From Patescibacteria group bacterium (GTDB lineage Bacteria; Patescibacteriota; Patescibacteriia; UBA2196), in assembly GCA_036845805.1 (NCBI GenBank), contig DAIUDD010000001.1, positions 103,594 through 167,593 of the forward strand: a DNA stretch of 64,000 bases, in the 5' to 3' direction. The position numbers and the translations under genes are program-made. Below the pieces are notes generated by a model, which was not told the DNA's origin, made no database searches, and was given only the letters and a program-made list of their open reading frames with translations. Positions 11,037 through 52,047 of this stretch are shown in pieces (the first letter of the stretch is position 1; every line of letters starts with the position of its first letter).

Positions 11037-12365
11037 ATGATTAACAGAGAACAGGATTATGTTTTTCCCAAGGATTTTCTTTGGGGCACTGCCACTTCCG
11101 CTCATCAAGTAGAGGGTGATAATTTTAATAGTGATTGGTGGCAATGGGAAGAAAAAATGAAAGGAAGGGTTTTGCCAGTGGCAGAAAAAAAATATCAAAA
11201 TAAAAAATTTGTGCCTTCTGGTAAGGCCTGCGATCATTATTATCGTTATGAAGAAGATTTTGATTTGCTGGAAAAAATGGGCAACAATTCTTATCGGTTA
11301 TCTATTGAGTGGGCGCGCCTAGAACCAAAACCAGGTCTCTTTGACGAGCAGCAATTAAATCATTATCAGCAGGTTTTAAAAGACTTAAAAAGAAGAAATA
11401 TTAAGGTTATGTTAACCTTAAATCACTTTACTTTGCCAAATTGGTTAGCCCTGCATGGTGGTTGGACCAGTTTTAAAGCTCCATATTATTTTACCCGCTA
11501 TGTTACATATATTGCTAAAACCCTAGGTCAATTGGTAGATTTATGGATTACCATTAATGAACCAGAAATTTATATTGATATGTGTTATTTAAAGGGTTTT
11601 TGGCCGCCACAAAAAAAAGATATCAAGAAAGCCGTCTTGGCTTATTTAAACATGGCCCGTGCTCACAAAAAAACTTATAAATTGTTACATCAAACTTTAG
11701 ACCGGCCAGAAAAAAAAGTTCAAGTTGGTTTTGCTATGAATGTTATGTCTTTTGCTTCTTATAAAAAACATAATTTTTGGGAATTATTTTATGTTCACGC
11801 CGCTGATCGCATTATCAATCATTCTTTTTATGATTTGACCAAAAAAACACACGATTTTCTTGGTGTTAATTATTATTTTAGAGTCCGTCTTAAACAGGCA
11901 GAAAATAGTCTTTTACCTACTCAAGATGAGGTTAAAGAAGAAGAGAGCGAATTAACCGACATGGGTTGGGTTGTTTATCCACACGGAATTTTTGATGTTT
12001 TAATGGATTTTAAAGACTTTAATTTGCCAATTTATATCACCGAAAATGGCATTGCTACCGAACATGACGAGCAGCGTGTTAATTTTATTATTAATCATTT
12101 AGTAGAAATTCATCACGCCATCAGTGCCGGTGTTGATGTGCGCGGTTATTATCACTGGTCTTTGCTTGATAATTATGAATGGGACAAGGGCTTTGGTCCA
12201 AAATTTGGCTTAGTGGCGGTTGATCATCGTTCTCAAATCAGAACTCCCAAAATTAGTTATTACATCTATCAAAAGATATGCAAAAAAAATTGCATCTCAA
12301 AAGATTTAATGAAAAAAATTTGCCAAAATAATACAATTACCAAAGAATTAATTAAAAAATTATGA
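11037..12365 (+). CDS. Glycoside hydrolase family 1 beta-glucosidase
   Basis: FLWGTATSAHQVEG N-terminal signature, TINEP catalytic acid and ITENG nucleophile motifs. Carries an unusual Lys-rich repeated C-terminal tail. Confidence 0.85.
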   Translation: MINREQDYVFPKDFLWGTATSAHQVEGDNFNSDWWQWEEKMKGRVLPVAEKKYQNKKFVPSGKACDHYYRYEEDFDLLEKMGNNSYRLSIEWARLEPKPGLFDEQQLNHYQQVLKDLKRRNIKVMLTLNHFTLPNWLALHGGWTSFKAPYYFTRYVTYIAKTLGQLVDLWITINEPEIYIDMCYLKGFWPPQKKDIKKAVLAYLNMARAHKKTYKLLHQTLDRPEKKVQVGFAMNVMSFASYKKHNFWELFYVHAADRIINHSFYDLTKKTHDFLGVNYYFRVRLKQAENSLLPTQDEVKEEESELTDMGWVVYPHGIFDVLMDFKDFNLPIYITENGIATEHDEQRVNFIINHLVEIHHAISAGVDVRGYYHWSLLDNYEWDKGFGPKFGLVAVDHRSQIRTPKISYYIYQKICKKNCISKDLMKKICQNNTITKELIKKL

Positions 12366-13630
12366 GATATCTAATCCAAAAGGTATTATATTTTTTTAGT
12401 AAAGCAATCTTAAAAAAATATCACCCCGATGTTATTGGTGTCACTGGTTCTGTCGGTAAAACTTCAGCTAAAGAGGCTATCCACACCGTCTTAAAAAATA
12501 AATATAACACTAGAACTAATTTAAAAAATTATAATACTGAATTTGGCGTGCCACTGACTATTATCAATTCACCCTCTGGGCAACATAACCCCTTTAAGTG
12601 GCTGATTATTTTTTTAAAAGCCCTTTTTTTAATTTTATTTAAAACCAAAAAATATCCCGATGTTTTAGTGTTGGAAATGGCCGCCGATCACCCCGGTGAT
12701 ATTGCCTATTTGGCCAAATTAACTCAACCGCATTTGGGCGTAATTACCGCCATTGGTCCAAGCCATTTAGAATTTTTTAACACCATTGAAGAGGTGATTA
12801 AAGAAAAAGAAACTTTAATCCGTTTTTTAAAAACAGATGACTGGGCCATCTTAAATAATGATGATAGTTTGGTTATCGGTATGAAAAAAAATACTACTGC
12901 GAAAATTTTTACTTTTGGTTTAACTTCCGCCGCAAATATCCGCGCAGAAAAGGTGAATTTTGAAAAAGATGGCAGCGGCGTCATGGCTGAAATAATTTGT
13001 GCCGGCGAAAGCAATTTTGCCAGTTTTAAAAACGTTCTTTCTACCAGCCAACTAGATTCTTTTTTAATTGCTCTTTCGGTTGGTAAAATTTATGGCATTC
13101 CTTTAAGCGAGGCAGTTGATAGTTTGCGTGATTTTAGTTTTCCGCCCGGTCGCCTTAATTTAATAAAAGGTATCAAAAATACCACTCTTATTGATGATAC
13201 TTACAATTCTTCTCCCAAGGCCGTTAAAGTTGCTTTGAGTGTTTTATCGCGCCTTTCTTGTTCTAATCGGCGCTGGGCTGTTTTAGGTGACATGTTAGAA
13301 CTTGGCAGTCTAACTGAATCTGCCCACGAAGAAGTGGGGGAGTGGGTTAAACAATTTAAGGTTGATATATTGGTGACTGTGGGAGAAAAATCAAAAGATA
13401 CGGCCAAAATAGCCGAGATTAATGGTTTATCACGAGAAAAAGTTTTAAGCTTTAATAATAGCATAGAGGCGGGAAAATTTTTACAAAACGAAATCATGAC
13501 TGGCGATGTTATTTTAGTGAAAGGTTCACAAGGCATGCGCATGGAGAAAATTGTCAAAGAATTAATGGGGGAACCCCTGCGTGCTAAAGAATTACTGGTT
13601 CGACAAGAAGATTATTGGTTAAAAAAATAA
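12362..13630 (+). CDS. murF: UDP-N-acetylmuramoyl-tripeptide--D-alanyl-D-alanine ligase (MurF), N-terminal domain absent
   Basis: GVTGSVGKTS P-loop, NYNTEFGVPLT (MurF-specific), C-terminal GDMLELG. Protein starts directly at the ATP-binding domain. Confidence 0.75.
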   Translation: MRYLIQKVLYFFSKAILKKYHPDVIGVTGSVGKTSAKEAIHTVLKNKYNTRTNLKNYNTEFGVPLTIINSPSGQHNPFKWLIIFLKALFLILFKTKKYPDVLVLEMAADHPGDIAYLAKLTQPHLGVITAIGPSHLEFFNTIEEVIKEKETLIRFLKTDDWAILNNDDSLVIGMKKNTTAKIFTFGLTSAANIRAEKVNFEKDGSGVMAEIICAGESNFASFKNVLSTSQLDSFLIALSVGKIYGIPLSEAVDSLRDFSFPPGRLNLIKGIKNTTLIDDTYNSSPKAVKVALSVLSRLSCSNRRWAVLGDMLELGSLTESAHEEVGEWVKQFKVDILVTVGEKSKDTAKIAEINGLSREKVLSFNNSIEAGKFLQNEIMTGDVILVKGSQGMRMEKIVKELMGEPLRAKELLVRQEDYWLKK

Positions 13631-13640
13631 TTTTATTTTT

Positions 13641-15371
13641 GTGTCAGAATTAAGTTTTACTACCATAAATATCATTGTTTTAACAAAAGTAATTTTATTT
13701 ATTTTTGTTTTTTTGTTACTTTTCTTAATTTATAAAAAAAATAATAAACCATGGTGTTATTTATTATTAATTACCATTGTTATCTTTGTTTTTTATTTAG
13801 TTTTTAGTTACCCACTTAAAAAAATGCTCTGGGGTAATAGTGGCGATGAAACTTATATTTTTACATTTTTAAAGCAAGTTATGGCCGGTAATTATTTTTC
13901 TGATTTTTATTATGGCTGGCTTCCTCCGTTTTATCCACCCTTATATTTTTGGATCACAGGAACTATTGCTCATTTTTTTACTAATAATGGCATTGTAGCT
14001 GCAAAAATTGGAGTTCTAGGAACAGTAGTTATTTTTTTTATAGGTTCATATCTGTGGCAAAAATTTTTTTATCAAAAAATAAATCAAAATAATTACGAAT
14101 CAGAAGACAACTTGGATTCTTTTCATAAATCCCCATGGTTTTGGATGTTATTGCCATGCATTTTTTTTATATTATTAGATTTTGATATTTTTATTTTTAA
14201 ACCTTATGAAGTTGTTACCGCTTTATTTTCTGTAATTTTTGTTGGATTTTTATATTTAAATTTTTTTAGTAAAAAATGGCACCCCAAATTTTTTTTATTT
14301 TCTATTATAAGTGGAGGTATTTTGTTTTTAACTTACTACTTTTGGTGGTTTATTTTAATTCCAGTTATTTTATTTTTAATTTATTTATCCTCTGATAAAA
14401 TTAAAAATTTAAAAAGAATTATAATTACTGGTATTGGCATTTTTATTCTAAGTAGTATTTTTTTAATTCCTTTACTTTTATCTCTTTTAAGGGGTGGAAT
14501 AGAAAACGGGCAGGCTGGATTTTTTATTCCTCAAGATTTATCAACTTATGTTCCTTGGATTACAACGTCTTTTTGGGGGAGCTCATTTTTTATATTTGGT
14601 ATTTTTGGTTTAATAAAATTTTCTTCCCAAAAATTGGTTAAATCGAGTTTGTATATATTTATAATGTGTTATTTATACCAGTTTATTAATCTTATTTATT
14701 TTTTAATTTATCATAAAACTTTTTTGGCCGCTAAATCATTTCCCATACTATCTGCGGCTTGTTTGTCTATTGGCGCTGCTTATTTAATTAATTATTTATA
14801 TAACATAACCATAAAAAAATATCGGCAAATGGATAGAATGATATTAATTTTAGTGATAATTATTATTTCAATTTTACCCTTAGTAAAATTTATTGATGAC
14901 CCCATAGTTCGAGCTCAAATAGATAAAGATTTAATTCCTAATAGAAATTCTTACTTAGTTGAAATTATTAAAAATATTACTGACTATAATAAAAAAATTT
15001 GGCTTTCTGGCAGTGTTGGTGATTTATCAGCATTTTTATCCTTATCATATTATGTTTCTTATAGTCAACATTTTAGTCACCCGGCTGCTTTTTATTCAAA
15101 GAGAATAATATTTATTAAGCAGCTGGCTAATACGTCAAACGGAGATGAATTTTATCAGCTGATAGTTCAGCAATCTCAGCCATTGATAACTGGTTTAATA
15201 TTGTATAAAAATAATTCAGATTTAAATAACTATTACCTTTATTTTAATGTAGATAATTTTCCTAACGGAGTCAAAGAATTAATTATAAAATTTAATAAAG
15301 ATTTAGTTAGCGAAAAATATTGGCAAAAAGAATATGAAGATAGTCGAATAACTATTTTTACTTTAAAATAA
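13641..15371 (+). CDS. GT-C fold membrane glycosyltransferase (PMT/ArnT-like, GT39/GT83-type)
   Basis: About 12 TM helices. First loop has GDETY ... FYPPLYFW (DE...hPPL motif pair of polyprenyl-P-sugar-dependent GT-C enzymes). Confidence 0.55.
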   Translation: MSELSFTTINIIVLTKVILFIFVFLLLFLIYKKNNKPWCYLLLITIVIFVFYLVFSYPLKKMLWGNSGDETYIFTFLKQVMAGNYFSDFYYGWLPPFYPPLYFWITGTIAHFFTNNGIVAAKIGVLGTVVIFFIGSYLWQKFFYQKINQNNYESEDNLDSFHKSPWFWMLLPCIFFILLDFDIFIFKPYEVVTALFSVIFVGFLYLNFFSKKWHPKFFLFSIISGGILFLTYYFWWFILIPVILFLIYLSSDKIKNLKRIIITGIGIFILSSIFLIPLLLSLLRGGIENGQAGFFIPQDLSTYVPWITTSFWGSSFFIFGIFGLIKFSSQKLVKSSLYIFIMCYLYQFINLIYFLIYHKTFLAAKSFPILSAACLSIGAAYLINYLYNITIKKYRQMDRMILILVIIIISILPLVKFIDDPIVRAQIDKDLIPNRNSYLVEIIKNITDYNKKIWLSGSVGDLSAFLSLSYYVSYSQHFSHPAAFYSKRIIFIKQLANTSNGDEFYQLIVQQSQPLITGLILYKNNSDLNNYYLYFNVDNFPNGVKELIIKFNKDLVSEKYWQKEYEDSRITIFTLK

Positions 15372-15390
15372 AATTTATATTAGTTTATTT

Positions 15391-16284
15391 ATGATTAAAA
15401 TTAATAAATATAAAGTTGAATTTTTTTTATTTTTATTAACTTTAATTAGCCGTCTTCCTTTTGTTTCTAAAATTTTATATAGTTGGGATGCGGTTCAGTT
15501 GTCTTTAGCTCTTAAGCATTTTGATCTTGCCCAACACCAACCGCATCCGCCCGGTTATATTTTGTATGTCGCTTTGGGAAAAATTTTTAATTTTATATTT
15601 TTTAACGTTAATACCGCCTATGTTATTCTCAGTATTATTATTTCTGCGTTAGCTGTAATTATTTTTTATAATTTTTTAAAATTACTTTTGGATGATCAAA
15701 AATCATCTTTTTTTATTAGTTTGATATTAATTTTTAATCCCTATTTTTGGTTTTACGGCGAAGTTGCCTCCACATATATTTTTGACGCCTTATTCTCCAT
15801 AATATTTGCTTATTTAACTCTGTTAATTATTAAAGAAAATAAGCTTAAATATTTTTATCTTTTTACCTGTTTTTTAGCAGTTTCTGGTGGTTTTCGGCAA
15901 AGTTTATTATTTTTATTTTTTCCTTTGTGGATTTATGCTTTAATAATTTTATTAAAAAACAATAAAATAAGTTTAAAACAAATTTTTATAAATATTGGAT
16001 TAGGCATCTCTTTTGTTTTAATTTGGTTTTTACCGTTAATTTATCTATCCGATGGTTGGACCACTTATTGGCAAGTAACCAATTGGCAATTATCACACGC
16101 TTCACAAGAAACTTCCATATTTTATGGAGTCGCCTGGAAAAATATCTTTATTAATTTAAGGCACATCATAAAAATCACTTTTATTTCATTAAACGTTTGT
16201 CTGTTAGTGCCGCTGTTATTGTTTTGTTCAAAAATAAAAAATAATTTTAACAAAAATTTTAATTATCAGATTATTTATTTATAA
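15391..16284 (+). CDS. GT-C fold membrane glycosyltransferase, N-terminal portion (probable frameshifted gene together with 16347..16991)
   Basis: SWDAVQLSLALKHFDLAQHQPHPPGYILYV carries the D...HPP loop motif. The ORF ends where the 16347 ORF's frame opens (nt 16263). Confidence 0.5.
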   Translation: MIKINKYKVEFFLFLLTLISRLPFVSKILYSWDAVQLSLALKHFDLAQHQPHPPGYILYVALGKIFNFIFFNVNTAYVILSIIISALAVIIFYNFLKLLLDDQKSSFFISLILIFNPYFWFYGEVASTYIFDALFSIIFAYLTLLIIKENKLKYFYLFTCFLAVSGGFRQSLLFLFFPLWIYALIILLKNNKISLKQIFINIGLGISFVLIWFLPLIYLSDGWTTYWQVTNWQLSHASQETSIFYGVAWKNIFINLRHIIKITFISLNVCLLVPLLLFCSKIKNNFNKNFNYQIIYL

Positions 16285-16346
16285 TCTGGCTAATACCATC
16301 ATATTTTGTTTATATTTTTATTCATTTTGGAAATTCCGGTTATTTA

Positions 16347-16991
16347 ATGACCGTCTCCCTTGGCTTGCTTATTATGTTTTGCGCTCCTTTACATTTTGTT
16401 TTTAATAACAAAACATTTTTTAAAAAAATAGTTTATAGTTTAATAATTATAATCAGTGTCTCAAGCTTTTTATTCTTTGATTCAAATTTTATTATACCAA
16501 ACAAATATTTAAATTTTTTATCCCACGAATATAATTATCATTTTATTTTAAATTTTGATAAAAAAATTGAACTCCTAGTTAAAAAAATACGGGAATATGA
16601 TGCCCAAAAGACGATCCTGGTGGTCGAAAATGGTTTTAAATATCGCCCTGTAAATTTGAGTGGCGAGTGGCGAGCTAGTACATATAAATATTTTAGACAC
16701 ATCGAATACTATCTACCAGACTATAAGTTATATGAAATATTTTGGAATGAGCCATTAAGGTATTTTTATCTCAGCAACTATTCTCCTCTTAAAATCAATT
16801 ATTCAAACAAAATTAAAATTAATGCTGATGTCGATAAAATGATAATTATCTCCGATAATATCGATCAAGATTTTATAAAAGAAAGTTTAATTCAAGAGTT
16901 AAGTTTAGATGATAATATAAAGTTATTTATAATTGATTTTGCTAATAAAAAAGAAATAAGATATTATAAATACGAATTTATTAAAGAATAA
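16347..16991 (+). CDS. C-terminal portion of the same GT-C glycosyltransferase (frame opens at 16263, overlapping the stop of the 15391 ORF)
   Basis: Upstream extension of this frame (LSDYLFIIWLIPSYFVYIFIHFGNSGYL) is hydrophobic and continuous with TM topology. Homopolymer-rich junction. Confidence 0.45.
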   Translation: MTVSLGLLIMFCAPLHFVFNNKTFFKKIVYSLIIIISVSSFLFFDSNFIIPNKYLNFLSHEYNYHFILNFDKKIELLVKKIREYDAQKTILVVENGFKYRPVNLSGEWRASTYKYFRHIEYYLPDYKLYEIFWNEPLRYFYLSNYSPLKINYSNKIKINADVDKMIIISDNIDQDFIKESLIQELSLDDNIKLFIIDFANKKEIRYYKYEFIKE

Positions 16992-16994
16992 AAT

Positions 16995-17708
16995 ATGTCA
17001 ATCTACATAGTTATCCCCACTTACAATGAAAAAGAAAACTTGCCTAATTTAGTTGCGGTAATTGCCGAAAATTTAAAGAATTATCAATATCAGATTTTAA
17101 TTGTTGACGATAATTCACCCGACGGCACCGGCCAAATTGCCGAAAATTTAAAAGAAAAATATCCAGTGGAAGTTTTGCATCGCAGCGGCAAATTAGGCAT
17201 TGGTTCCGCCTATATTGCCGGCTTTAAACAAGCGCTCAAATCTGGTGCTGATTTAATTTTCGAAATGGATGCCGATTTTTCCCATCGCCCCGAAGATTTG
17301 CCTCGCATGATAGAAGCCGCCAAAGAATCAGATATGGTCATTGGTTCTAGAAAAATAAAAGGCGGGCGGGTTGTTGGTTGGAATTGGCGTCGCCATTTTT
17401 ATTCCAATGGCGCGATGTTTGTAGCGCGATTATTTTTAGGCCTTAAGACCCATGATGTTACTGCTGGTTTTCGGTGTTATAAAAAAGAAGTTTTACAAAA
17501 AATAAATTTAGATTCTATTCAATCCAACGGTTATGCTTTTCAGGAAGAAATGTTATATCGAGTGGAAAAAGCTGGTTTTATTGTAAAAGAAGTTCCAGTC
17601 GTTTTTCCTGATCGTCGTCTCGGTCAATCAAAATTAAATAAAAAAGATATTATTGAATTTTTTAAAACAATTTTTAGATTGAGATTTAATCTGCATGTCA
17701 AATATTAA
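16995..17708 (+). CDS. Polyprenol/dolichol-phosphate mannosyltransferase-like GT2 (Dpm1/Ppm1 family)
   Basis: IVIPTYNEKENL...ILIVDDNSPDGTGQIAENL...GSAYIAGFK...EMDADFSHRPEDL is the classic DPM-synthase GT2 pattern. Confidence 0.8.
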   Translation: MSIYIVIPTYNEKENLPNLVAVIAENLKNYQYQILIVDDNSPDGTGQIAENLKEKYPVEVLHRSGKLGIGSAYIAGFKQALKSGADLIFEMDADFSHRPEDLPRMIEAAKESDMVIGSRKIKGGRVVGWNWRRHFYSNGAMFVARLFLGLKTHDVTAGFRCYKKEVLQKINLDSIQSNGYAFQEEMLYRVEKAGFIVKEVPVVFPDRRLGQSKLNKKDIIEFFKTIFRLRFNLHVKY

Positions 17709-18663
17709 TTGTCTTATTTGTGGTAATCAAAAAAACAATAAATCATTTCTTGTGTCAGAAATGATGTTTGGTTTAGGAGAAAAATTCGAATATTTTGAAT
17801 GTGAAAAATGTGGTTGTTTGCAAATTAAAGAACCATTATCTGATCTTACCAAATATTACCCTATTAACTATTATTCATTTCACAACATAATTTCTAAGTA
17901 TGATTTTTTTATTTCTTTTTTAAGGCGTCAGATGGCCAATTATTATATTTTTAAAAAAAACAATATTTTCGGCATGTTTTTAGTTTATTTTTTTAGTTTG
18001 CCAGATTTTTTTCACTGGCTTAAAAAAATAAATTTAAATTCAAAAGCAAAAATATTAGATGTTGGCTGTGGTCAAGGACATTTATTAATTGGTTTAAGAA
18101 GAGCCGGCTATCAAAATCTTATTGGTATTGATGCCTATCTTGATCATGATTTATTTTATAAAAATAATGTAAAAATATACAAAAAAGAATTATCACAAAT
18201 ATCAGAAAAATTTGATTTTATTATTTTAAATCATAGTTTTGAACATATGTTAAATCCGCAAGCTGTGATTAAAAAAACATACAGCCTGTTAAATAATGGC
18301 GGGCATCTTTTAATCAGAGTTCCGGTGGCGTCTTCTTATGCTTGGCAACATTATGGAGTTAGTTGGGTGCAATTGGATGCTCCCAGACACATTTTCATTC
18401 CTTCAGTTAAAAGCATGGAAATTTTGTCAAAGACAGCTGGTTTTAATCGCGTTGAAGTCGAATTTGATTCTAACGATTTTCAGTTTTGGGGCAGCGAACA
18501 ATATCAAAAAAGTATTCCTCTACGCAGCCCATTATCTTATGCTGAAAATCCTAAAAAATCTATTTTTACTAAAAAGCAGATTCAAGATTTTAAAAACCAA
18601 GCCCAGAAATTAAATAAAAATAAAAAAGGCGATACAGCCAGTTTTTATTTTTTTAAAAAATAA
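17695..18663 (+). CDS. Class I SAM-dependent methyltransferase with N-terminal Cys4 zinc ribbon
   Basis: CLICGN...CEKCGC zinc ribbon. LDVGCGQGHL motif I. ILNHSFEHM. Confidence 0.7.
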   Translation: MSNINCLICGNQKNNKSFLVSEMMFGLGEKFEYFECEKCGCLQIKEPLSDLTKYYPINYYSFHNIISKYDFFISFLRRQMANYYIFKKNNIFGMFLVYFFSLPDFFHWLKKINLNSKAKILDVGCGQGHLLIGLRRAGYQNLIGIDAYLDHDLFYKNNVKIYKKELSQISEKFDFIILNHSFEHMLNPQAVIKKTYSLLNNGGHLLIRVPVASSYAWQHYGVSWVQLDAPRHIFIPSVKSMEILSKTAGFNRVEVEFDSNDFQFWGSEQYQKSIPLRSPLSYAENPKKSIFTKKQIQDFKNQAQKLNKNKKGDTASFYFFKK

Positions 18664-18665
18664 TT

Positions 18666-20246
18666 TTATTTTTCAATCGCGTATAAATTTATATCTTTAA
18701 ACAAAAAATAATTGTAATATTTTTTTGAATATATAATTTTATAATCTGGTAAGACCGAGAAAGAGATAATCTGCGCGTTAGTATTTTTAGGAAATAGCCA
18801 GCACAAATACCATGGCCTTGTGTTCTCCACAAATTTAGGAAAATTTTTCATTATTTTATATGTGTACCAGCCATTAAGTTCATAACCACCCTCAACGTGA
18901 TGCAAAAATTCCTTTTGAATAAGATTATGATACAGATCGTTTCTTGCCCTGTTCCAATCTAAATAATTGCGTTCCAGGGCAAGAGAAAAAAAAGCAAAGA
19001 TCATTAATAAAATAATAGATAAAGTATATTTGTTATCAATTGTCTCTGGCATTGCCATAATTAAGCACAAAGGCAACAGTAATAAAAAATAACGGTCAAA
19101 ACCAATAAAAATTAAAATAAAAATAAGTTGTAAAACAAAATTTAAAAAAACAAGGTTCAATAAATTATTATCTTTTAATAATTTTTTAATTTTTATTATC
19201 AATATTGTTATTAAAAGTGCGCCGCCCCAAGAAGCTACTAAACTTACGATTAATTTTAATTGCCAGTTAAAAATTAGAGGGGGAGTGCCTTGTAAAACTT
19301 CAATCATCGGGCCCAAACCATAATCATTAATTATGTTTTGGTTATAAGGAAAGCGTTGATTAAAAATAAAAGTTATGGCAACTAAAATTAAAAAAGAGGT
19401 AATAAAAATAATAACATTTTTTTTCTTATAATTTTCCCCTTTAAAAAGCCACAAACAAGTAATTGGTAATGTAAACAGACCCAAATATTGCACACCATAA
19501 AAAAACCACTCCGCCATATGTTTAATTAACCCCCCCTCCAATAAATGTGTTTGTGCCCCACTAATTTTAATATTATTTTGAAAAATTAAATAGCCGCCCC
19601 CACAAATCAGTAGGCTCAGAAATAATTTTAATAAAAAATTTTTAAAACATTCTTTGTCAATTTTTTTATTAAACCACAGCTGTAAATAAAAAATTACCAA
19701 CGCGCCAAAGAATAAAATTCCGTTTTGTCTAATAAAAAAAGAAGCTATTGCCGAAACCAGCCCTAAAATCAACCAGTTCCCATTTTTTTGTTCGATACTT
19801 TTATAAACACCGTAAATTGCCAACAAATAAAAAAATAAAAATGGCACATCAGTCATAAAAGTAAAAGATGTGTTTATAAAAATAGGATTTAATAAAACTG
19901 TTAAAAAAACCAACCAAGGCAAATTTTTATCAGTAGAATTTTTTTGGGTTAAAAAATAAATAATCCATAGTGATAAAAAAGAAAAAATTAAGGTTGTTAA
20001 ACGCAATATAGTAAAAGAAAAACCAGCTATTTTAGCAACTAAAAAGCCATAAAAAACCTGAAAGATTAAGATTGGTCCAGTCCAATAATAAAAATCAATT
20101 TTATGCTGAAAAAGCCATTCGTTTATTGGATGCGCATAAACCCAGTCGTCGTTTAGTGGAAAGTTTCCGATTGGGTTTAACAAAAAAACAATAGCAATAA
20201 AAAATATTGCCAAATAAAATATTATTTTTTTATCTTTTTTTTCCAT
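18666..20246 (-). CDS. Polytopic membrane protein, probable GT-C family glycosyltransferase
   Basis: About 13 TM helices. N-terminal loop NDDWVYAHP. Size and topology resemble ArnT/PMT-like enzymes. Confidence 0.45.
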   Translation of the reverse strand: MEKKDKKIIFYLAIFFIAIVFLLNPIGNFPLNDDWVYAHPINEWLFQHKIDFYYWTGPILIFQVFYGFLVAKIAGFSFTILRLTTLIFSFLSLWIIYFLTQKNSTDKNLPWLVFLTVLLNPIFINTSFTFMTDVPFLFFYLLAIYGVYKSIEQKNGNWLILGLVSAIASFFIRQNGILFFGALVIFYLQLWFNKKIDKECFKNFLLKLFLSLLICGGGYLIFQNNIKISGAQTHLLEGGLIKHMAEWFFYGVQYLGLFTLPITCLWLFKGENYKKKNVIIFITSFLILVAITFIFNQRFPYNQNIINDYGLGPMIEVLQGTPPLIFNWQLKLIVSLVASWGGALLITILIIKIKKLLKDNNLLNLVFLNFVLQLIFILIFIGFDRYFLLLLPLCLIMAMPETIDNKYTLSIILLMIFAFFSLALERNYLDWNRARNDLYHNLIQKEFLHHVEGGYELNGWYTYKIMKNFPKFVENTRPWYLCWLFPKNTNAQIISFSVLPDYKIIYSKKYYNYFLFKDINLYAIEK

Positions 20247-20296: not shown

Positions 20297-20325
20297 TTGA
20301 CAAAACTTTTATTTTTTGGTAGAAT
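20297..20325 (+). promoter_or_regulatory. Sigma70-type promoter for rnpB
   Basis: TTGACA, 17-bp spacer, TAGAAT. Ends about 6 nt before the predicted P1 stem of RNase P RNA. Confidence 0.5.
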
Positions 20326-20330
20326 ATTAT

Positions 20331-20720
20331 GGTCCAGGTAGATGAGTGATCGCTTCGGCTTAATGTCGGGGAGGAAAGTCCGGACATCTCAATGTTAAGA
20401 CATTGAATAAAGATAATCGCGAAACGCGACCGAGTATAAGAATTACAATAAGAAAAATAGATCACGATCGTTTTATTTTTCTTTTGGTCAAATTCAAAAC
20501 TCCGAGCCAGTGCCACAGAAAATAAACCGCCCTGCATCCTACGTGGTGCAAGGTAAGGGTGAAAACGTGGTGTAAGAGACCACGCACTTCTATGGCGACA
20601 TAGATTTGGGTAAACCTTATCTGGTGCAAGTAGTAAAATCTACGCTTAGATAGATGATCACACTCATTCGCAATAATTAGCGTTTGGGACAGAATCCGGC
20701 TTATGATTCTGCCTGGACAT
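20331..20720 (+). ncRNA. rnpB: RNase P RNA (bacterial type A)
   Basis: GGAGGAAAGTCCGGAC (P4 5' strand), AGGGTGAAA, GGTAAACC, ACAGAATCCGGCTTA (P4 3' strand). P1 pairing GTCCAGGTAGA/TCTGCCTGGAC. Confidence 0.8.
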
Positions 20721-20800
20721 AAAAAATCAAAATTTAAAATTATTAATTCTAAATTTTGCACTGTCATTTTACGTTTTGATTTTTACATTTTAATTTATTT

Positions 20801-22192
20801 ATGAAAAAATCAGATTTAACCTTTTCTGCGATTTTAGTGCCGCTCGACTATCTGATGATTGTTTTAGCAGCTACCTCTGCTTATTTTCTCCGTTACGTTG
20901 ATTGGATACAAAATATCCGCCCCGTAATTTTTAATTTATCTTTTCGTCAATATGTGAATTATGTCTGGCCCATTGCTTTGGGCTGGATTTTTATTTTTAT
21001 GTTAGCCGGTTTATATCAGATGTCACTTCGTCGGAAAATATTTTCTGAAATTAGTAAGGTTTTTTTGGCTTGTTCCACCGGCATGTTAGCGGTAATTGTT
21101 GGCGCTTTCTTTTCCCGTGAATTATTTAATTCGCGGTTTATTTTATTAATTGCTTGGCTTTTATCATTTCTTTATGTCATTATTGCTCGATTAATCATTA
21201 TTTTAATTCAAAGAATTTTATATACTAAAAATATTGGTGTGCACCGCGTGGTTTTGGTCGGGGCGGATAATTCCACCGAAGATATTGCTAAAGAAATTTA
21301 TAGCCGCAAAACATTGGGTTACCAAATTGTTGCTCGCCTTGATAATTATCAGAATGGCAACAGAGATAAATTATTAGAAATTTATCAAACCAAGGGCCTT
21401 GATGAAATTATCCAAGGTGATTCTAATTTAAATCGCCGTGAAAATTTAGCGCTGCTGGATTTTGCTGATGAGCATCATCTTGTTTTTAAATATGCGGCCG
21501 ATTTTTTTGCTGCCCAGAGTCCGCGTTTAGAAATAGACACCATCGCCGGCGTACCGATTATGGAAGTTAAGCGCACCGCCTTAGATGGTTGGGGCCGTGT
21601 TTGGAAACGAATTTTTGATGTTATTTTTTCTTTTTTGCTGCTCATTGTTTTTTCACCAATTTTTATTATTTTAGCCTTGCTTATTAAATTGGATTCTGCC
21701 GGGCCGATTTTTTATGGTTCAGCCCGCATTGGCGCCAAAGGCCAGCCGCTTAAAATTTGGAAATTTCGCTCCATGGTTAAAAATGCCGATAAAATGAAAA
21801 AAAAATTGTTAGCTCAAAACGAAAGGGAAGATGGCCCGCTTTTTAAAATGGAAAATGATCCGCGTGTTACTAGGGTAGGAAAATTTATCCGCGCTTGGAG
21901 TTTGGACGAATTGCCGCAATTTTATAATGTTTTAAAGGGTGATATTAGTTTAGTCGGACCGCGGCCTCATGAACCACACGAAGTTGATCAATACGAAAAG
22001 CATCATAAAAAATTATTAAATATTAAACCCGGCATTACTGGTTTAGCCCAAGTTTCTGGCCGTTCCGATTTGGAATGGGAAGAAGAAGTGCGTCTTGATA
22101 CTTTTTATGTAGAAAATTGGTCGCCCTGGCTAGATTTAACCATTTTACTTAAAACCCCTTTTGTGGTCATAACCCGTAAGGGCGCTAAATAA
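20801..22192 (+). CDS. Polyprenyl-phosphate hexose-1-phosphate transferase (bacterial sugar transferase, WbaP/CpsE family)
   Basis: Five N-terminal TMs. C-terminal KRIFDVIFSFLLLIVFSPIFII...GPIFY...KIWKFRSM...PQFYNVLKGDISLVGPRP is the PF02397 signature. Confidence 0.85.
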   Translation: MKKSDLTFSAILVPLDYLMIVLAATSAYFLRYVDWIQNIRPVIFNLSFRQYVNYVWPIALGWIFIFMLAGLYQMSLRRKIFSEISKVFLACSTGMLAVIVGAFFSRELFNSRFILLIAWLLSFLYVIIARLIIILIQRILYTKNIGVHRVVLVGADNSTEDIAKEIYSRKTLGYQIVARLDNYQNGNRDKLLEIYQTKGLDEIIQGDSNLNRRENLALLDFADEHHLVFKYAADFFAAQSPRLEIDTIAGVPIMEVKRTALDGWGRVWKRIFDVIFSFLLLIVFSPIFIILALLIKLDSAGPIFYGSARIGAKGQPLKIWKFRSMVKNADKMKKKLLAQNEREDGPLFKMENDPRVTRVGKFIRAWSLDELPQFYNVLKGDISLVGPRPHEPHEVDQYEKHHKKLLNIKPGITGLAQVSGRSDLEWEEEVRLDTFYVENWSPWLDLTILLKTPFVVITRKGAK

Positions 22193-23535: not shown

Positions 23536-25008
23536 TTATTTTGTCAAAACAAGACGCTTGGTTTGGCTGAAGTTTCCGGCCTCCAAGCGATAGAAATAAA
23601 TACCGCTGGGCAAACCCATCGCATTCCAGATCACCCGGTGCACACCAGGACACTGCTGCTCGTTGACCAACAAGGTCACCAGCTGGCCCATGAGGTCATA
23701 GATTGCCAGCCGTACAAGTCCTTCCCGAGGCAGCGAATATTCGATGGCGGTTTCGGGATTGAATGGGTTAGGGTAGTTCTGCAATAAAGAAAATTCGACT
23801 GGCACAGTCATGGCGTTTTCCACGCCTGTCATGCGCCAATCCCCAGGTGGTGGCGGTGGTTGAAGATTTGAATCAATGGACAGCATCTCAGGATTTTCGC
23901 TAAGCAGCACGCCCTGGCTTATACCTTTTGCCAGATATTGTTGCTGCGGCATAAAAAACAAGACGCAACTTGACGTTGCATATGCCCAGAAGCCCTTACC
24001 AGCTTGTGTACTGCTCATTGGCATTAGCGGGTAGTATGATCTGCTCCCGCCGTCGTATCCAAACAAGTGTAATTTAAAGTTTGGATCGCTTGGCGGTGCC
24101 AACACTGACAAACAATTTGCCAGCGGCTCGTAATAATTCGGAAACGCCACCAATTGCCATTTCTCTTTCTCCAATGAAACCGAGTCGGTTTCATTATCGA
24201 AAAGAACAACGGAATAATCTCTCGGTTCTCCTTTCCAATAAGTTCCCCCGCCATAGCTCGGCAGCCAAAAAACATTATCCACCCGGCTGGCATTTTTATC
24301 CGAATTGGTCGGAATAAAACCCGACGGTCGATAGAGACCGGGTGCGTTGTAATCCAGAAAAAAAATCTTTTCACCCGGCACCTCGATGTCCAGCTGTGAA
24401 ACCGGGAAATCATATTCCAGATATACCGGCGTGCTGGCAATTTCCCAGCCCATATTGTAAAACACGCGAACGCCCTCTTTGATTCTAACTAAGCCAAGAT
24501 CCAAGACGCTTGGTTCGCACCAAGTTGGATCACTGTTTGGTTGGGTTAATGCCAAAATCCGTTGATTTTTTATTTGGAACTTGATCCAGTCGCCATCATG
24601 GAAGTGCTCATTCACATCCATAATGGCATAAAAATGCGATTCGCCCCAAGTTTGCACAATGGGCGGATCAAACGAAATTACGAATTCGTTGACCCATTCT
24701 GCCTTGGACAGTTCAATACCCGATTGATCCAATATCCTCATAGACATCAGATCCGTGGGTGTGGCGTCACTCTCTCCGTTGATCGAAAAATCTATGATCA
24801 GATTATATGAGACACACATATATTGAGTGGTGTCACCGGGAAACTCTGGGATAAACCGGGAAGAAAAAGAAAACATGTACTGGTTTGAAAAGCCAGGTTT
24901 CACAGTTACTTGATTGTTGTAACCGTTAAAAACCAGGACGGGGTTGCCAGCCACGGCCACAAAAGCCATAGTCAGAATTAAACTTACTACCAACAATTGC
25001 TTCTTCAT
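23536..25008 (-). CDS. Secreted protein with C-terminal T9SS (Por secretion) type-A sorting domain; GC-rich, probably foreign
   Basis: Signal peptide MKKQLLVVSLILTMAFVAVAG. C-terminus LLQNYPNPFNPETAIEYSLPREGLVRLAIYDLMGQLV...SGIYFYRLEAGNFSQTKRLVLTK matches the T9SS CTD consensus. ORF GC is about 50% versus about 30% in flanks. Confidence 0.7.
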   Translation of the reverse strand: MKKQLLVVSLILTMAFVAVAGNPVLVFNGYNNQVTVKPGFSNQYMFSFSSRFIPEFPGDTTQYMCVSYNLIIDFSINGESDATPTDLMSMRILDQSGIELSKAEWVNEFVISFDPPIVQTWGESHFYAIMDVNEHFHDGDWIKFQIKNQRILALTQPNSDPTWCEPSVLDLGLVRIKEGVRVFYNMGWEIASTPVYLEYDFPVSQLDIEVPGEKIFFLDYNAPGLYRPSGFIPTNSDKNASRVDNVFWLPSYGGGTYWKGEPRDYSVVLFDNETDSVSLEKEKWQLVAFPNYYEPLANCLSVLAPPSDPNFKLHLFGYDGGSRSYYPLMPMSSTQAGKGFWAYATSSCVLFFMPQQQYLAKGISQGVLLSENPEMLSIDSNLQPPPPPGDWRMTGVENAMTVPVEFSLLQNYPNPFNPETAIEYSLPREGLVRLAIYDLMGQLVTLLVNEQQCPGVHRVIWNAMGLPSGIYFYRLEAGNFSQTKRLVLTK

Positions 25009-29887: not shown

Positions 29888-31066
29888 ATGGCTGAAATAA
29901 GCAAAAATAAACCCAAAATACTAATTTTTTCCCTAGCATATGCCCCTTTTATTGGTGGCGCCGAGATTGCTGTTCAAAAAATCACCAAACGTCTCAGTGA
30001 TTATTTTGAATTTGATGTCATAACTTGTAATTTAAATGGAAAACAAAAAGAGGAAGAATGGAACGAGGGGGTAAAAATTTATCGTGTCGGTAATAGTTGG
30101 ATTGGTAAACAATTTTTTCATTATCTATCTTATAAAAAAGCGATCGAATTACACCAGGAAAATAATTATCTGGCTATTTGGTCAATTATGGCTAATAGAG
30201 CTGGGTTGGCGGCATTGAAATTTAAAGAAAAATTTTCAGAAGTAAAATATTTGTTAACTTTGCAAGAAGGCGATCCGCTGTCGCATATTTATTGGCGCAC
30301 TTGGTTTTGGTGGTGGCGTTATAAAAAAATTTATCAACAAGCTGATCATATTCAGGTGCTTAGTGCCTGGTTGGAAAAACGCGCCAGGAAATTTGGTTAT
30401 CAAAAGGAAATTAGCATCGTGCCCAATGGAGTAGATATTAACAAATTCAAAACTCAAAATTCAGATGTTAAAATTATGGAAGAATTAGATATACCGAAAG
30501 ATACTAAAATTATTTTTACCACCTCGCGTTTAGTTAAAAAGAATAATGTGATGAGTTTGATTAAAGCCACGAAGATGTTATTAACCGATTATAAAATTCC
30601 AGTAAATTTACTTATTGCTGGCGAAGGTGAATTAAAAAAACGATTAAAATTTCTTACTCACCAATTAGCCATAAAAAAAGAAGTTAATTTTTTAGGTTAC
30701 ATTTACTCAGAAGATTTACCTAAATATTATAATCTGGCAGATGTTTTTGTCCGCCCCTCCTTATCTGAAGGCTTTGGAATTTCCTTTGTCGAAGCTATGT
30801 CTGCCGGCGTACCTGTTGTTGCTACACCCGTTGGTGGTATTCTTGATTTTTTAATTGACGGCGAAACTGGTTGGTTTTGTGAGCCAAAAAACCCTGAAAG
30901 TATTGCCGAAAAAATTAATTATATTTTAGATAAAAAAAATCAAGCTGAAGTTGAGCGGGTGGTAGCGAATGCCAAAAAAATGGTAATGGAAAAATATACT
31001 TGGGATGTGGTGGCCACTCAAATGAAAGAAGTTTTTGATAATCTTATAAAAAATAAGTATGTTTAA
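29888..31066 (+). CDS. Glycosyltransferase family 4
   Basis: SEGFGISFVEAMSAGVPVVATPVGGILDFL. Confidence 0.8.
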   Translation: MAEISKNKPKILIFSLAYAPFIGGAEIAVQKITKRLSDYFEFDVITCNLNGKQKEEEWNEGVKIYRVGNSWIGKQFFHYLSYKKAIELHQENNYLAIWSIMANRAGLAALKFKEKFSEVKYLLTLQEGDPLSHIYWRTWFWWWRYKKIYQQADHIQVLSAWLEKRARKFGYQKEISIVPNGVDINKFKTQNSDVKIMEELDIPKDTKIIFTTSRLVKKNNVMSLIKATKMLLTDYKIPVNLLIAGEGELKKRLKFLTHQLAIKKEVNFLGYIYSEDLPKYYNLADVFVRPSLSEGFGISFVEAMSAGVPVVATPVGGILDFLIDGETGWFCEPKNPESIAEKINYILDKKNQAEVERVVANAKKMVMEKYTWDVVATQMKEVFDNLIKNKYV

Positions 31067-32819
31067 AAATTTATCAAAAATCGAAAGGAATATTTTAATT
31101 GGAATTTTAATCCTTTCTTTTGTTTTAATTTTTTTTCGTCTCACCAGGGCCGATCTTCAAGGCGATGATGCTCATTATTCATTTCGTGCCATTGGATATT
31201 TTGATTTTATGTCTTCCGATTATGGACAGACCACCCCGATTCAGTGGTTTAAAGGTTATGCGCCCTGGTGGACCAAGCTTTCATTTCATGATCATCCGCC
31301 ATTAGTTTTTATAATTCAACATCTGTTTTTTAAAATTTTTGGCGTGAATGATTTCAGTGCCAAATTGCCATTTGCCATAGCTGGGTGGTGCTTGATTTAC
31401 ATCGTTTTTTTAATTGGCAAAGAGCTTTTTAATAATAAAGCCGGACTCTTAGCGGCCCTTTTTTTGGCCCTTAATAGTAATCATATTTGGATTTCACGCG
31501 TTGGTTATTTAGAAAGTATCGTTATTTTTTTTATAGCTCTTTGTTTGTTATTTTTAATTAAGGGAAATAAACAAAGTAAATATTTAATTTGGATGGGTGT
31601 TTGTTTGGGTTTAGCCATGATTAGTAAATATACTGCATTTTTGTTAATTCCGATTATTTTTATTTATGCTTTAATTAATTATAAAAACATATTTAAAAAT
31701 AAAAATTTTTGGCTCGGTCTTATTCTAGCATTAATTATTTTTTCTCCAGTAATTTTTTATAATATCAAAGTTTATCAAACCCGCGGCCACGCCGATGTGC
31801 AATTTACCGCCCTTTTAAATTTACCTAAAACCGATTGGCCAATTTTAGCTCAAAGATCAGTTTTACAAAGAGAAGCATATCCAACCATCTTTTTTTATCT
31901 TTTTAAAAATTTAGGTTCTTATACATCTTGGCCTCTATTAGCATTATTTTTTATTTCTTTTTTTTATCTTTTGGTTAAATTAATTTTTGTTCCAGAATTT
32001 AATAAACAAAAAAGTTATTCTTTTCTTTTTCTTGTTTTTATTTTTCTTTCATTTTTTTTTATAATTACTGGTTTAAACAACTCCTTTTATATTACACCCC
32101 TTAATTTTGTCACGGCTCTTTTTATGGGGGCCGCTTTGATTGATGTTTATAATCAAATTAGACATAAAAAAATTTTAACTTATGTTGCTTTTTGTTGTTT
32201 AATTATTTTTTCTATCTATTTTTTATTATTTATTTATAACACTAATCATCGCTTTGATCTGCATGAATCGAAATTTTTATTCGGCGCCAATCGTTTAGAA
32301 AATCTTGGCTTTCAGTCTCTAACAAAATTTATTTCTGATAATTTAAAAGGCAAATATGCTGGTACCATATCGATGAATTTTACTCCTCTACAACGTTATA
32401 ATCCTAACCAAGAAACCACTGGACCGTGGCATGGTAAAGAAGAAAATAGGATGATTTATATTTATGATGATAGTACACAGTGGTTTGCTCGCCTTTGGTA
32501 TTTAGAACGTTGGCGTTTATATTATTTTTTTCCTTTTATTGGTACCAAAGAATTAAGCAAATTAACTCTTAATAAAGATGAGATAAAAAACCAAGACTTA
32601 GTTTTTAAAGACGGTTTTTATTATTTGAAAAGCACTCAAGATATTCAATTAGATAAAAGCAACTCTTCTAATAATTGTGCCGCCGCTCTGCAGGACACTT
32701 TAGATAATTACCCTAACACAGAAGTAATTGAATTAAATAACGAAACTGGGCAGGCCATGTTTAAAGTTTATAAATTTTATGATCTTAAACCCTTTTTAGC
32801 TTGCGAAATGTTTTTATAA
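31059..32819 (+). CDS. GT-C fold membrane glycosyltransferase (ArnT/PMT-like)
   Basis: About 12 TMs. First loop DLQGDDAHY ... HDHPPLVF (DD/hPPL motifs). Confidence 0.65.
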   Translation: MFKNLSKIERNILIGILILSFVLIFFRLTRADLQGDDAHYSFRAIGYFDFMSSDYGQTTPIQWFKGYAPWWTKLSFHDHPPLVFIIQHLFFKIFGVNDFSAKLPFAIAGWCLIYIVFLIGKELFNNKAGLLAALFLALNSNHIWISRVGYLESIVIFFIALCLLFLIKGNKQSKYLIWMGVCLGLAMISKYTAFLLIPIIFIYALINYKNIFKNKNFWLGLILALIIFSPVIFYNIKVYQTRGHADVQFTALLNLPKTDWPILAQRSVLQREAYPTIFFYLFKNLGSYTSWPLLALFFISFFYLLVKLIFVPEFNKQKSYSFLFLVFIFLSFFFIITGLNNSFYITPLNFVTALFMGAALIDVYNQIRHKKILTYVAFCCLIIFSIYFLLFIYNTNHRFDLHESKFLFGANRLENLGFQSLTKFISDNLKGKYAGTISMNFTPLQRYNPNQETTGPWHGKEENRMIYIYDDSTQWFARLWYLERWRLYYFFPFIGTKELSKLTLNKDEIKNQDLVFKDGFYYLKSTQDIQLDKSNSSNNCAAALQDTLDNYPNTEVIELNNETGQAMFKVYKFYDLKPFLACEMFL

Positions 32820-32828
32820 ATTTAATTT

Positions 32829-33263
32829 ATGTTAACACAAATAATTAATTTAATTTGGCATCATTTTTTTTTAAAATTTAAACAATTTTTTAAATTTTGT
32901 GTTGTTGGAACTACTGGCGCGATCATTGATATTGGTGGCCTGTGGCTATTGGTTGAATTCGTTGGCTTATATTATTTGGTTGGCGCCACCATTTCTTTTG
33001 TGGCCGCTGTTATTAATAATTATTTTTTAAATAAATATTGGACTTTTAAAGATCAAAGCAAAATTAGTCTCGCACAATTTTTTTCATTTTCTATAATTAG
33101 TGTCATCGGTTTGGGTATTAATTTATTAACTATGTATATTTTTGTCGAATGTGTTAATTTAAATTATTTAATTAGCAAAGCCATTGCCTCCCTGATTGTG
33201 TTATCGTGGAATTTTTTAATGAATAAATACATCACCTTTAAAAAATCTTATGGCCCAGTCTAA
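32829..33263 (+). CDS. GtrA-family membrane protein
   Basis: FFKFCVVGTTGAIIDIGGLWLLVEFVGLYYLVGATISF...NYFLNKYWTFK is the PF04138 pattern. Four TM. Confidence 0.75.
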   Translation: MLTQIINLIWHHFFLKFKQFFKFCVVGTTGAIIDIGGLWLLVEFVGLYYLVGATISFVAAVINNYFLNKYWTFKDQSKISLAQFFSFSIISVIGLGINLLTMYIFVECVNLNYLISKAIASLIVLSWNFLMNKYITFKKSYGPV

Positions 33264-51363: not shown

Positions 51364-52047
51364 ATGCTCAAACTTTCCATTATTATTCCAACATATAACG
51401 AAGAAAAAACCGTTTTAAAAATTATTAATCGGGTTGAGCGCGTTAAATTAGAAAATATTAATAAAGAAATAATTATCGTTGATGATGGTTCAACCGATCA
51501 AACAAAAGAAATTTTAAAACCATTGGAAGAAAAATATAAAATTATCTATCAGCCTAAAAATTTAGGTAAAGGCGCCGCAGTCAGAACCGCTCTTAACCAG
51601 ATAACCGGTGACATAGTTTTAATTCAAGACGCTGATTTAGAATATAATCCAGAAGAATATTCCAAACTATTAGATCCCATTATTAATCATGACCTTAACG
51701 TGGTATATGGTTCGAGAATGCTTGGTGCACACACCGCCACAAATTTTTATTATTATTTAGGTAATAAATTAATTACTTTTATTGCCAATCTCCTCTACAA
51801 CGCATCTTTAACTGACATAGAAACCGGGTATAAGGTTTTTCGTAAAGATGTTATAATTAATTTAAATTTAACCGCTAATGGTTTCGATATCGAGCCAGAA
51901 ATTACTGCTCAAATTTTAAAGAAATATAATATTCACGAAGTGCCTATCTCTTATTTTGGCCGGGATTTTTCGGAAGGTAAAAAAATTTCTTGGCGTGATG
52001 GTTTGCAAGCCATTCTTGTTCTTTTAAAATATAAATTTATTAACTAA
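51364..52047 (+). CDS. Glycosyltransferase family 2 (polyprenyl-phosphate sugar synthase-like)
   Basis: LSIIIPTYNEEKTV...IIVDDGSTDQT...IQDADLEY. Confidence 0.8.
   Translation: MLKLSIIIPTYNEEKTVLKIINRVERVKLENINKEIIIVDDGSTDQTKEILKPLEEKYKIIYQPKNLGKGAAVRTALNQITGDIVLIQDADLEYNPEEYSKLLDPIINHDLNVVYGSRMLGAHTATNFYYYLGNKLITFIANLLYNASLTDIETGYKVFRKDVIINLNLTANGFDIEPEITAQILKKYNIHEVPISYFGRDFSEGKKISWRDGLQAILVLLKYKFIN

Follow-up and report, generated by a model that had tools for sequence, protein, structure and literature searches.

The DPMS-type synthase and the GT-C proteins of the locus

We analysed a 64,000-nucleotide stretch of DNA from a Patescibacteria group bacterium (the window), focusing on positions 13,641 to 20,246. 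Here a glycosyltransferase family 2 (GT2) gene of the Dpm1/dolichyl-phosphate-mannose synthase (DPMS) type lies among genes for membrane-embedded glycosyltransferases of the GT-C fold. An initial annotation had taken these genes for a polyprenyl-phosphate-sugar glycosylation module of the Ppm1/Pmt or ArnC/ArnT kind. All open reading frames (ORFs) named there do exist at their coordinates, and the general logic, whereby a polyprenyl-phosphate sugar comes from a cytoplasmic Dpm1-type GT2 and is then used outside by GT-Cs, survives the present analysis. Homology identifies in the locus a DPMS-type GT2 and three GT-Cs that are intact and have their catalytic acidic residues. The full-length GT-C proteins have ~11 hydrophobic peaks each, and every GT-C has an acidic motif on the first extracytoplasmic loop, with a Pro-rich motif after it in three cases. 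They are true GT-C folds, as had been claimed, but they are not uniformly PMT/ArnT-like.

The GT2 gene (16995..17708, +) encodes a 237-aa protein comprising the catalytic domain only (Pfam Glycos_transf_2, PF00535, 5.5e-33). The hydrophobicity profile reveals no transmembrane (TM) segment, and the chain stops shortly beyond the interface-helix region; thus, it is a catalytic-domain-only form and, having no C-terminal TM domain, is not of type III like the P. furiosus enzyme (PfDPMS). The structure of PfDPMS (5mlz) is the best solved relative (E 1.4e-45, residues 1–229) and the only strong one in the PDB, the weaker matches being ArnC (5.9e-14) and GtrB (9e-8). The functional residues of PfDPMS have been assigned from structures, and we mapped the alignment to 5mlz onto these roles (PMC5526996). 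Twelve of the 14 residues are identical or conservatively changed in the window protein. Thus, E12, D39, D92-A-D94, H97, R119, R133, S137, R207 and K213 are retained (E12, D39, 89-DAD-91, H94, R117, R131, S135, R202 and K208 in PfDPMS), and the conservative changes are L69 to I69 and F177 to Y180. The Dpm1 signature read in this gene by the initial annotation is hereby confirmed. In terms of function, the protein shares with PfDPMS, DPM1 and Ppm1 the GT-A domain, the DAD metal motif, the equivalent of the guanine-binding Asp39, the acceptor-phosphate triad R119/R133/S137, and the A-loop pair R207 and K213. It is closer to DPMS than to the synthases for Glc, 4-formamido-arabinose (Ara4FN) or GalNAc. 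Probably, the GT2 is a polyprenyl-phosphate hexose synthase with mannose as its sugar; mannose is the best guess because of the similarity to DPMS and the GT22-like partner found in one relative (L169, see below).

The first GT-C gene (13641..15371, +; GTG start) had been described as PMT/ArnT-like. Its 576-aa product is instead, as judged from family profile and predicted fold, a full-length homologue of AftA (GT85 type). Pfam AftA_N scores 32.9 (cutoff 26.7), the single-sequence score for AftA_C being 17.3, under the cutoff of 25. With a 37-member family profile, the sole PDB match is M. tuberculosis AftA (8if8; E 1e-25), with both the TM domain and the C-terminal domain (CTD) aligned. The protein has ~11–13 TM helices and a C-terminal alpha/beta domain, and its AlphaFold2 model (pLDDT 92, pTM 0.91) superposes in Foldseek on 8if8 with TM-scores of 0.75/0.70 and E 3e-17; the next matches are PglB (5e-5) and ArnT (3e-4). 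Two motifs, G-D69-E70 and L94-PPFYPPLYFW, are invariant or nearly so in the 37 homologues. In M. tuberculosis AftA, the catalytic Asp128 sits on the first long extracytoplasmic loop and is steadied by Arg132, the R132A mutant being inactive (PMC10265970). D69 aligns with Asp128 and is invariant across the 37 sequences, and the polyprenyl-phosphate-contacting R415 of AftA aligns with an invariant lysine, K365. We therefore have a putative catalytic loop at D69/E70 and, in K365, a putative polyprenyl-phosphate contact.

The comparison with M. tuberculosis AftA (Rv3792, GT85) cuts both ways. Alike are the fold over the whole length (GT-C core and CTD, TM-score 0.75), the catalytic aspartate (D69/D128), the basic phosphate contact (K365/R415) and the LPPFYPP motif. 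Unlike AftA, however, the window protein has I73 in place of the essential Arg132, and the family consensus is not basic at that position; identity is ~16% to the M. tuberculosis protein and 16–21% to actinobacterial AftA. The hosts differ too, the present one being a monoderm-like bacterium of the candidate phyla radiation (CPR). Pfam-based gene annotation, which covers the window from 5.5 kb onward (9 ORFs of the first 5.3 kb lie outside the scan), found no genes for galactan or for the decaprenyl-phosphoryl-arabinose (DPA) pathway. Where the CPR protein has a partner, it is a GT2 of the hexose-phosphate-lipid-synthase type and not a DPA pathway based on phosphoribosyl pyrophosphate (PRPP). 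The homologues of the 576-aa protein come almost exclusively from metagenome-assembled genomes of Patescibacteria (CPR), and the protein itself is identical to one encoded in a public metagenome-assembled genome and was also found on an ENA contig and in two Logan assemblies.

The ORF at 15391..16284 (+) had been listed as the second GT-C. It does carry the loop motif, but it is merely the N-terminal, catalytic-loop half of one: its 297 residues (PMT_2 1.5e-7, TMEM260-like 2.5e-7) bear the W32-D33 and HQPHPPGY motifs and 7 hydrophobic peaks. The C-terminal half, previously unremarked, is the ORF at 16347..16991 (+). Its 214-aa product has 2 TM helices plus an extracytoplasmic domain and matched no Pfam family. 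According to the three-frame translation, the connecting segment (16263..16346, +) contains no stop codon when read in frame with the downstream ORF, but no start codon either. It encodes the family-conserved HFG(E/N)xGY motif, which is thus translated in neither ORF. The frameshift site lies at ~16275–16285, in a T/A-rich run. Full-length homologues of 512–532 aa at five loci (L011, L019, L023, L035 and L049) span both ORFs and are colinear across the junction, and the 214-aa half matches the C-terminal parts of those full-length ORFs with E values of 4.5e-9, 1.3e-8 and 9e-6. Read against these homologues, the two ORFs are the halves of one frameshifted ~520-aa PMT_2/TMEM260-like GT-C.

An assembly artefact as the source of the 297 + 214 split was considered and rejected: the same sequence is present in ENA and in two Logan assemblies, which possibly derive from one sampled population. 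In comparison with its orthologue in L007 (60% identity), the 214-aa half has a dN/dS of 0.21, which marks a sequence shaped by purifying selection; hence, either the split is recent or the two-piece form is tolerated. The L007 sequence has an apparent frameshift of its own, ~40 nt downstream, where it shows an extra T in a T-run; the window shows a difference of ~4 nt. Since L007 is a single short contig of 1.3 kb, its frameshift could be a homopolymer sequencing error. Frameshifts at different sites with the downstream ORF intact would mean that the two-piece form may be tolerated or that the T-runs are prone to error or slippage.

The remaining two GT-Cs stand as first annotated, one on the opposite strand and one next to a GtrA gene. 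The former (18666..20246, −) encodes a 526-aa PMT_2-type protein (PMT_2 2.2e-10) whose N32-D33-D34-W35 loop is invariant; the gene converges on those of the plus strand, 2 bases separating the stop codons. The model of the protein (pLDDT 92) has a clear GT-C fold without a close solved relative, the Foldseek TM-scores being 0.43–0.48. The family is very large, spanning Patescibacteria, Bacteroidota and others, and annotation pipelines label its members ‘GT39 family’ or ‘ArnT family’. The latter (31059..32819, +) encodes a second PMT_2-type protein of 586 aa (PMT_2 1e-30, PMT 8.6e-10) with the motifs GDDAHY...HDHPPL. Both the 526-aa and the AftA-like genes are intact, and every family-invariant residue is retained.

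Classification with hidden Markov models does not bear out the architectures that had been proposed for the locus. In the case of Ppm1/Pmt, the PF02366 (PMT) matches on the two PMT_2 proteins (6.1e-6 and 8.6e-10) are always weaker than those of PF13231, and no PMT_4TMC (PF16192) or MIR domain was found by Pfam in any GT-C of the window. Searches of the PDB with the PMT_2 proteins and with the 526-aa family profile gave nothing useful, returning neither a PMT nor an ArnT match. Thus, at the level of sequence, membership of GT39/Pmt fails on the defining domains. Membership of GT83 (ArnT) fails in the same analysis for want of a sequence-level match and of 4-amino-arabinose (Ara4N) genes. As for ArnC/ArnT as a pair, the GT2 is nearer to DPMS than to ArnC by ~30 orders of magnitude, and arnA, arnB and arnD are all missing. 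Lipid A synthesis is not known from Patescibacteria.

A variable slot in a surface-glycan locus

The window has a G+C content of ~32% and contains, besides its protein-coding genes, a bacterial class A RNase P RNA and 4 tRNA genes. From ~13.6 kb through to its end, it is dominated by surface-glycan genes. These include a WcaJ/WbaP-type phosphoglycosyltransferase, ~10 GT4 genes, several GT2 genes and a Wzx flippase, as well as radical S-adenosylmethionine (SAM) enzymes, methyltransferases, a carbamoyltransferase, an AsnB-like amidotransferase and dTDP-/NDP-sugar enzymes. The genes under study sit at the start of this region, between two anchors. On the left is murF, encoding the UDP-MurNAc-tripeptide–D-Ala-D-Ala ligase (12362..13630, +; NCBIfam TIGR01143 299.7 bits, cutoff 288.6; Pfam Mur_ligase_M and Mur_ligase_C), the stop codon of which is 10 nt from the start of the AftA-like gene. 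On the right is the gene for a polyprenyl glycosylphosphotransferase (PGT) of the WcaJ/WbaP type (20801..22192, +; NCBIfam TIGR03025 413 bits, cutoff 295.6), which would initiate a lipid-linked glycan and hence a candidate acceptor. The RNase P RNA (20334..20720, +; class A, 158.8 bits) lies between the convergent GT-C gene and the PGT gene. The plus-strand genes are closely packed: the gaps measure 10, 19 and 3 nt, and at one junction two genes overlap by 14 nt. The overlap is with the end of the GT2 gene and belongs to a methyltransferase gene (17695..18663, +) that had gone unmentioned in the initial annotation, situated between the GT2 and the convergent GT-C.

We compared this slot with its counterparts in five close relatives, L008, L087, L167, L168 and L169. 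The common backbone reads CAP-GH1-murF ... GT2 ... (RNase P RNA)-PGT-...-PriA-GAPDH, where GH1 denotes glycoside hydrolase family 1. The GT2 is kept throughout the comparison, with orthologues of 73–76% identity in L008, L087 and L169; murF is syntenic in L008, L087 and L169, and the PGT gene in L087, L167 and L168. The content of the slot, by contrast, is different in every relative examined. In the window, it consists of the AftA-like gene, the split PMT_2 gene, the GT2, the methyltransferase and the convergent PMT_2 gene. In L008, an AftA-like gene (58% identity) precedes the genes for an Ig/CARDB-like and a weakly methyltransferase-like protein and the GT2; L168, from the same sample, carries on with Wzy_C, a protein weakly resembling PMT_2 and the convergent PMT_2. 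In L169, murF is followed by the GT2, a methyltransferase, an unassigned 458-aa protein, a methyltransferase 71% identical to that of the window, a GT22-like GT-C and the convergent PMT_2. L167 carries a methyltransferase, the convergent PMT_2 and a CARDB protein, then the PGT gene. In L087, only a Wzy_C gene separates murF and the GT2 from the RNase P RNA and PGT genes, and the slot contains no GT-C. The two L008 genes between the AftA-like gene and the GT2 were compared with the split GT-C and proved not to be its homologues, being Ig/CARDB-like and weakly methyltransferase-like.

The 526-aa GT-C and the methyltransferase are positionally conserved in three relatives. The GT22-like (Alg9-like) GT-C of L169 scores above the Pfam cutoff for PF03901, and all characterized members of PF03901 that we know of use Dol-P-Man. 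The variable genes of the slot have a G+C content of 0.25–0.28, with 0.18–0.26 at third codon positions (GC3), compared with 0.34–0.38 for the backbone genes including the GT2. The slot, bounded by murF on one side and by the RNase P RNA/PGT genes on the other, is plastic; the GT2 is its conserved core and the GT-Cs are interchangeable accessories. Since the GT2 stays while GT-C genes come and go among relatives, the genes do not form a fixed operon or module, as had been supposed. The fast turnover of GT-Cs between close relatives looks like the diversification of surface antigens.

Donor supply, acceptors and competing explanations

Taking these data together, we find it fairly probable that these genes are the branch for lipid-linked monosaccharides in a large, quickly evolving surface-glycan locus: a polyprenyl-phosphate-hexose donor, probably carrying mannose, would feed variable extracytoplasmic GT-Cs that decorate surface glycans. 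At the cytoplasmic face of the membrane, the DPMS-type GT2 would load the hexose, likely mannose from GDP-mannose, onto polyprenyl phosphate. The lipid-linked sugar would then be flipped outward. The only candidate flippase in the window is the GtrA-family small membrane protein (32829..33263, +; Pfam GtrA_DPMS_TM 1.2e-29), whose gene follows that of the 586-aa GT-C. Outside, the AftA-like protein, the two PMT_2 proteins and, if active, the split GT-C would add single sugars to acceptors. The most likely acceptor would be a wall- or lipid-linked polysaccharide that the PGT would initiate and the products of the downstream GT4, GT2 and Wzx genes would assemble. A glycan is favoured by these PGT/GT4/GT2/Wzx surroundings and by the position right after murF.

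Two further genes may contribute on the cytoplasmic side. A second small soluble GT2 of 227 aa (51364..52047, +) matches NCBIfam AglJ (5.5e-40) and dolichyl-phosphate hexose transferase (1.8e-24), both under their cutoffs, and shares 26% identity with the first GT2; it is a possible source of a second lipid-linked donor. The product of the methyltransferase gene is a 322-aa class I SAM-dependent enzyme (Pfam Methyltransf_23 1e-24) with an N-terminal Cys4 zinc-ribbon-like motif. It has no hydrophobic peaks and, being soluble, would have to act in the cytoplasm, where, translationally coupled as it is, it might O-methylate a sugar.

The proposed scheme has relatives among the three-component extracytoplasmic systems, namely GtrA/GtrB/GtrC, CsbB/GtcA/YfhO and GacI/GacL (PMC8035078, PMC11127046). 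Like the Gtr-type systems, the window has a GT2 synthase, a GtrA-family protein and GT-Cs, near a Wzx/PGT polysaccharide locus. Unlike them, it shows no compact cassette, the GtrA gene being 15 kb from the GT2 and beside another GT-C; its GT2 has no counterpart of the C-terminal pair of TM helices in GtrB; and there are 3–4 GT-Cs from at least 3 families and possibly two synthases. By analogy, the locus may work like the actinobacterial GT-C pathways that depend on polyprenyl-phosphate-mannose (PMC8035078, PMC11127046, PMC5882110).

Having proposed this scheme, we would note several points that weigh against it. First, two functional residues of PfDPMS are replaced in the GT2, Q93 by S96 and K178 by A181. 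Enzymes of this kind are attached to the membrane by a TM domain of their own (types I and III) or by a partner subunit (DPM3, Ppm2); the GT2 has no TM domain, and no DPM3/Ppm2-like anchor partner is recognisable in the window. Eukaryotic DPM1 probably shares the Q93/K178 replacements. The sugar, moreover, is assigned to the GT2 from similarity to DPMS alone. Second, the GtrA gene is 15 kb from the GT2 and is paired with a different GT-C. Third, one of the GT-Cs is frameshifted and may be dead. Fourth, protein acceptors could be encoded elsewhere. Finally, most of the 72 Patescibacterial AftA-like genes whose loci we examined stand alone among housekeeping genes, with no GT2 or GT-C neighbour within 10 kb, and the AftA-like enzyme could for this reason use a different donor.

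The last point leads to an explanation that we regard as rather improbable, namely that the adjacency is coincidental: the AftA-like enzyme would use a polyprenyl-phospho-pentofuranose (arabinofuranose or ribofuranose) made elsewhere, and the GT2 would serve the other GT-Cs only. The homology to AftA along the whole length accords with such a donor, as does the lack of a GT2 neighbour at most AftA-like genes; conversely, L087 and L169 carry the GT2 with no AftA-like gene nearby. Three-component pentofuranose systems are also widespread outside Actinobacteria (PMC11127046). However, no UbiA-type PRPP transferase, phosphatase or DprE1/E2-like protein occurs among the annotated genes of the window from 5.5 kb onward, and the counterpart of AftA Arg132 is not conserved in a family that is only 16–21% identical to actinobacterial AftA. 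The distribution of GT2 genes also disagrees with coincidence. In the flanks of the 72 loci (1.05 Mb), 7 of the 13 small GT2 genes directly abut the AftA-like gene on the same strand (binomial p 3e-7 versus uniform placement), and four further strong DPMS-like genes lie 1.8–3.5 kb from AftA-like genes. The abutting GT2s match polyprenyl-phosphate-sugar synthases best (PgfS, ArnC, PpgS), all under the curated cutoffs. Full-length homologues of the split GT-C stand beside or near the AftA-like gene at 6 loci.

Two fusions were seen near AftA-like genes of other Patescibacteria. In L056 (13475–14554, −), a 353-aa protein joins a DPMS-like GT2 to a GtrA/DPMS TM domain, which is a type-III-like arrangement; in L063 (13537–15543, −), a 662-aa protein joins a DPMS-like GT2 to a 430-aa multi-TM domain with no Pfam match. 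The 430-aa domain was dropped as fusion evidence, as it shows no similarity to any GT-C of the window.

The AftA-like family is small: of 1.84 billion representatives at 50% identity, 599 could be recognised as members, ~70 of them belonging to the strong ~565-aa CPR type. This ~565-aa clade is found in at least 70 species-level genomes and forms ~70 clusters at 50% identity. We tentatively suggest that it could be a new branch of the GT85 fold, one that, in place of decaprenyl-phospho-arabinose, takes a polyprenyl-phosphate-hexose from the adjacent DPM1/ALG5-like GT2 and puts the residue on an undescribed wall-associated glycan of CPR bacteria. A search of the literature on arabinofuranosyltransferases, GT-Cs or polyprenol in Patescibacteria/CPR found nothing on these genes. 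An outlier of the family is a 591-aa protein of Calderihabitans maritimus (WP_088555030.1; profile E 1.4e-71), a cultured thermophilic member of the Bacillota, where it is annotated as ‘arabinofuranosyltransferase’. This homologue could be an experimental handle on the AftA-like family outside Actinobacteria.

More doubtful still is protein O-mannosylation of the actinobacterial Ppm1/Pmt kind, in which the PMT_2 GT-Cs would mannosylate Ser/Thr of secreted or surface proteins. It would explain the DPMS/Ppm1-like GT2 and the weak PF02366 matches of the two PMT_2 proteins, and the split GT-C matches TMEM260-like, which is a family of protein O-mannosyltransferases. Set against this are the lack of PMT_4TMC and MIR domains in all GT-Cs of the window, a family profile without a PMT match in the PDB, and neighbouring genes that are polysaccharide genes. 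Furthermore, a scan for Ser/Thr-rich proteins in the first 44.5 kb of the window (1–44.5 kb) was negative, the highest S+T fraction being 0.30 over any 40 consecutive residues, which leaves the initially proposed S-layer or other protein acceptor unsupported.

That the slot is a partly decaying accessory island, in which recently acquired low-GC GT-Cs are in part non-functional and make up no coherent pathway, is highly improbable: the frameshift does strip the conserved motif from both ORFs of the split GT-C, the conserved E of HFGExGY is N in the window copy, the variable genes are deviant in composition and the slot content differs in each relative, but the AftA-like and 526-aa genes are intact with all their family-invariant residues, the 214-aa half has been subject to purifying selection (dN/dS 0.21), and the 526-aa GT-C and the methyltransferase hold their position in three relatives.

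The locus belongs to a group whose cell envelopes are almost uncharacterized. CPR bacteria live attached to hosts, and surface glycans are therefore likely to matter for their lifestyle. The present locus suggests that they carry the standard glycosylation route via lipid-linked monosaccharides. It also points to a distinct and widespread CPR clade of a type of enzyme on which work has until now been confined to its role as priming arabinosyltransferase in the mycobacterial wall. None of this overturns current ideas; it provides concrete candidates for enzymology, including a homologue from a cultured organism.

Neighbouring genes and minor features

Upstream of the slot, the GH1 beta-glycosidase gene runs 4 nt into murF (window 11037–13630, +). 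At least two relatives, L008 and L087, share the order CAP-GH1-murF, and L169 shares its GH1-murF part. A glycoside hydrolase is an odd yet stable neighbour for a peptidoglycan precursor ligase.

A near-consensus promoter, TTGACA-17-TAGAAT with a TG extension, precedes the RNase P RNA at 20297–20325. Apart from it, a scan of 7.3–21 kb for promoters and terminators was uninformative in this AT-rich DNA. The ORF at 20462–20767 (−) is spurious, overlapping the RNase P RNA.

Downstream of the PGT gene, a 490-aa protein (23536–25008, −) has a signal-peptide-like N-terminus and a Por_Secre_tail domain (4.8e-8), the C-terminal sorting domain of the type IX secretion system. Its gene is strongly atypical in composition, with a G+C content of 0.466 and a GC3 of 0.517 against 0.32 for the window. 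These features suggest a foreign, Bacteroidota-like gene in a Patescibacteria genome.

Further into the glycan locus, a 760-aa fusion (47998–50280, +) combines an NAD-dependent epimerase/dehydratase, an RmlD-type reductase and a C-terminal RmlC/FdtA-like cupin, making an unusual dTDP-sugar enzyme of three domains. Also embedded among the glycosyltransferase genes (GT4 and GT2) are a B12-binding radical SAM enzyme (34406–35875, +) and two SPASM radical SAM enzymes (38948–39985, −, and 56587–57627, −), which hint at an unusual sugar modification such as C-methylation or epimerization.

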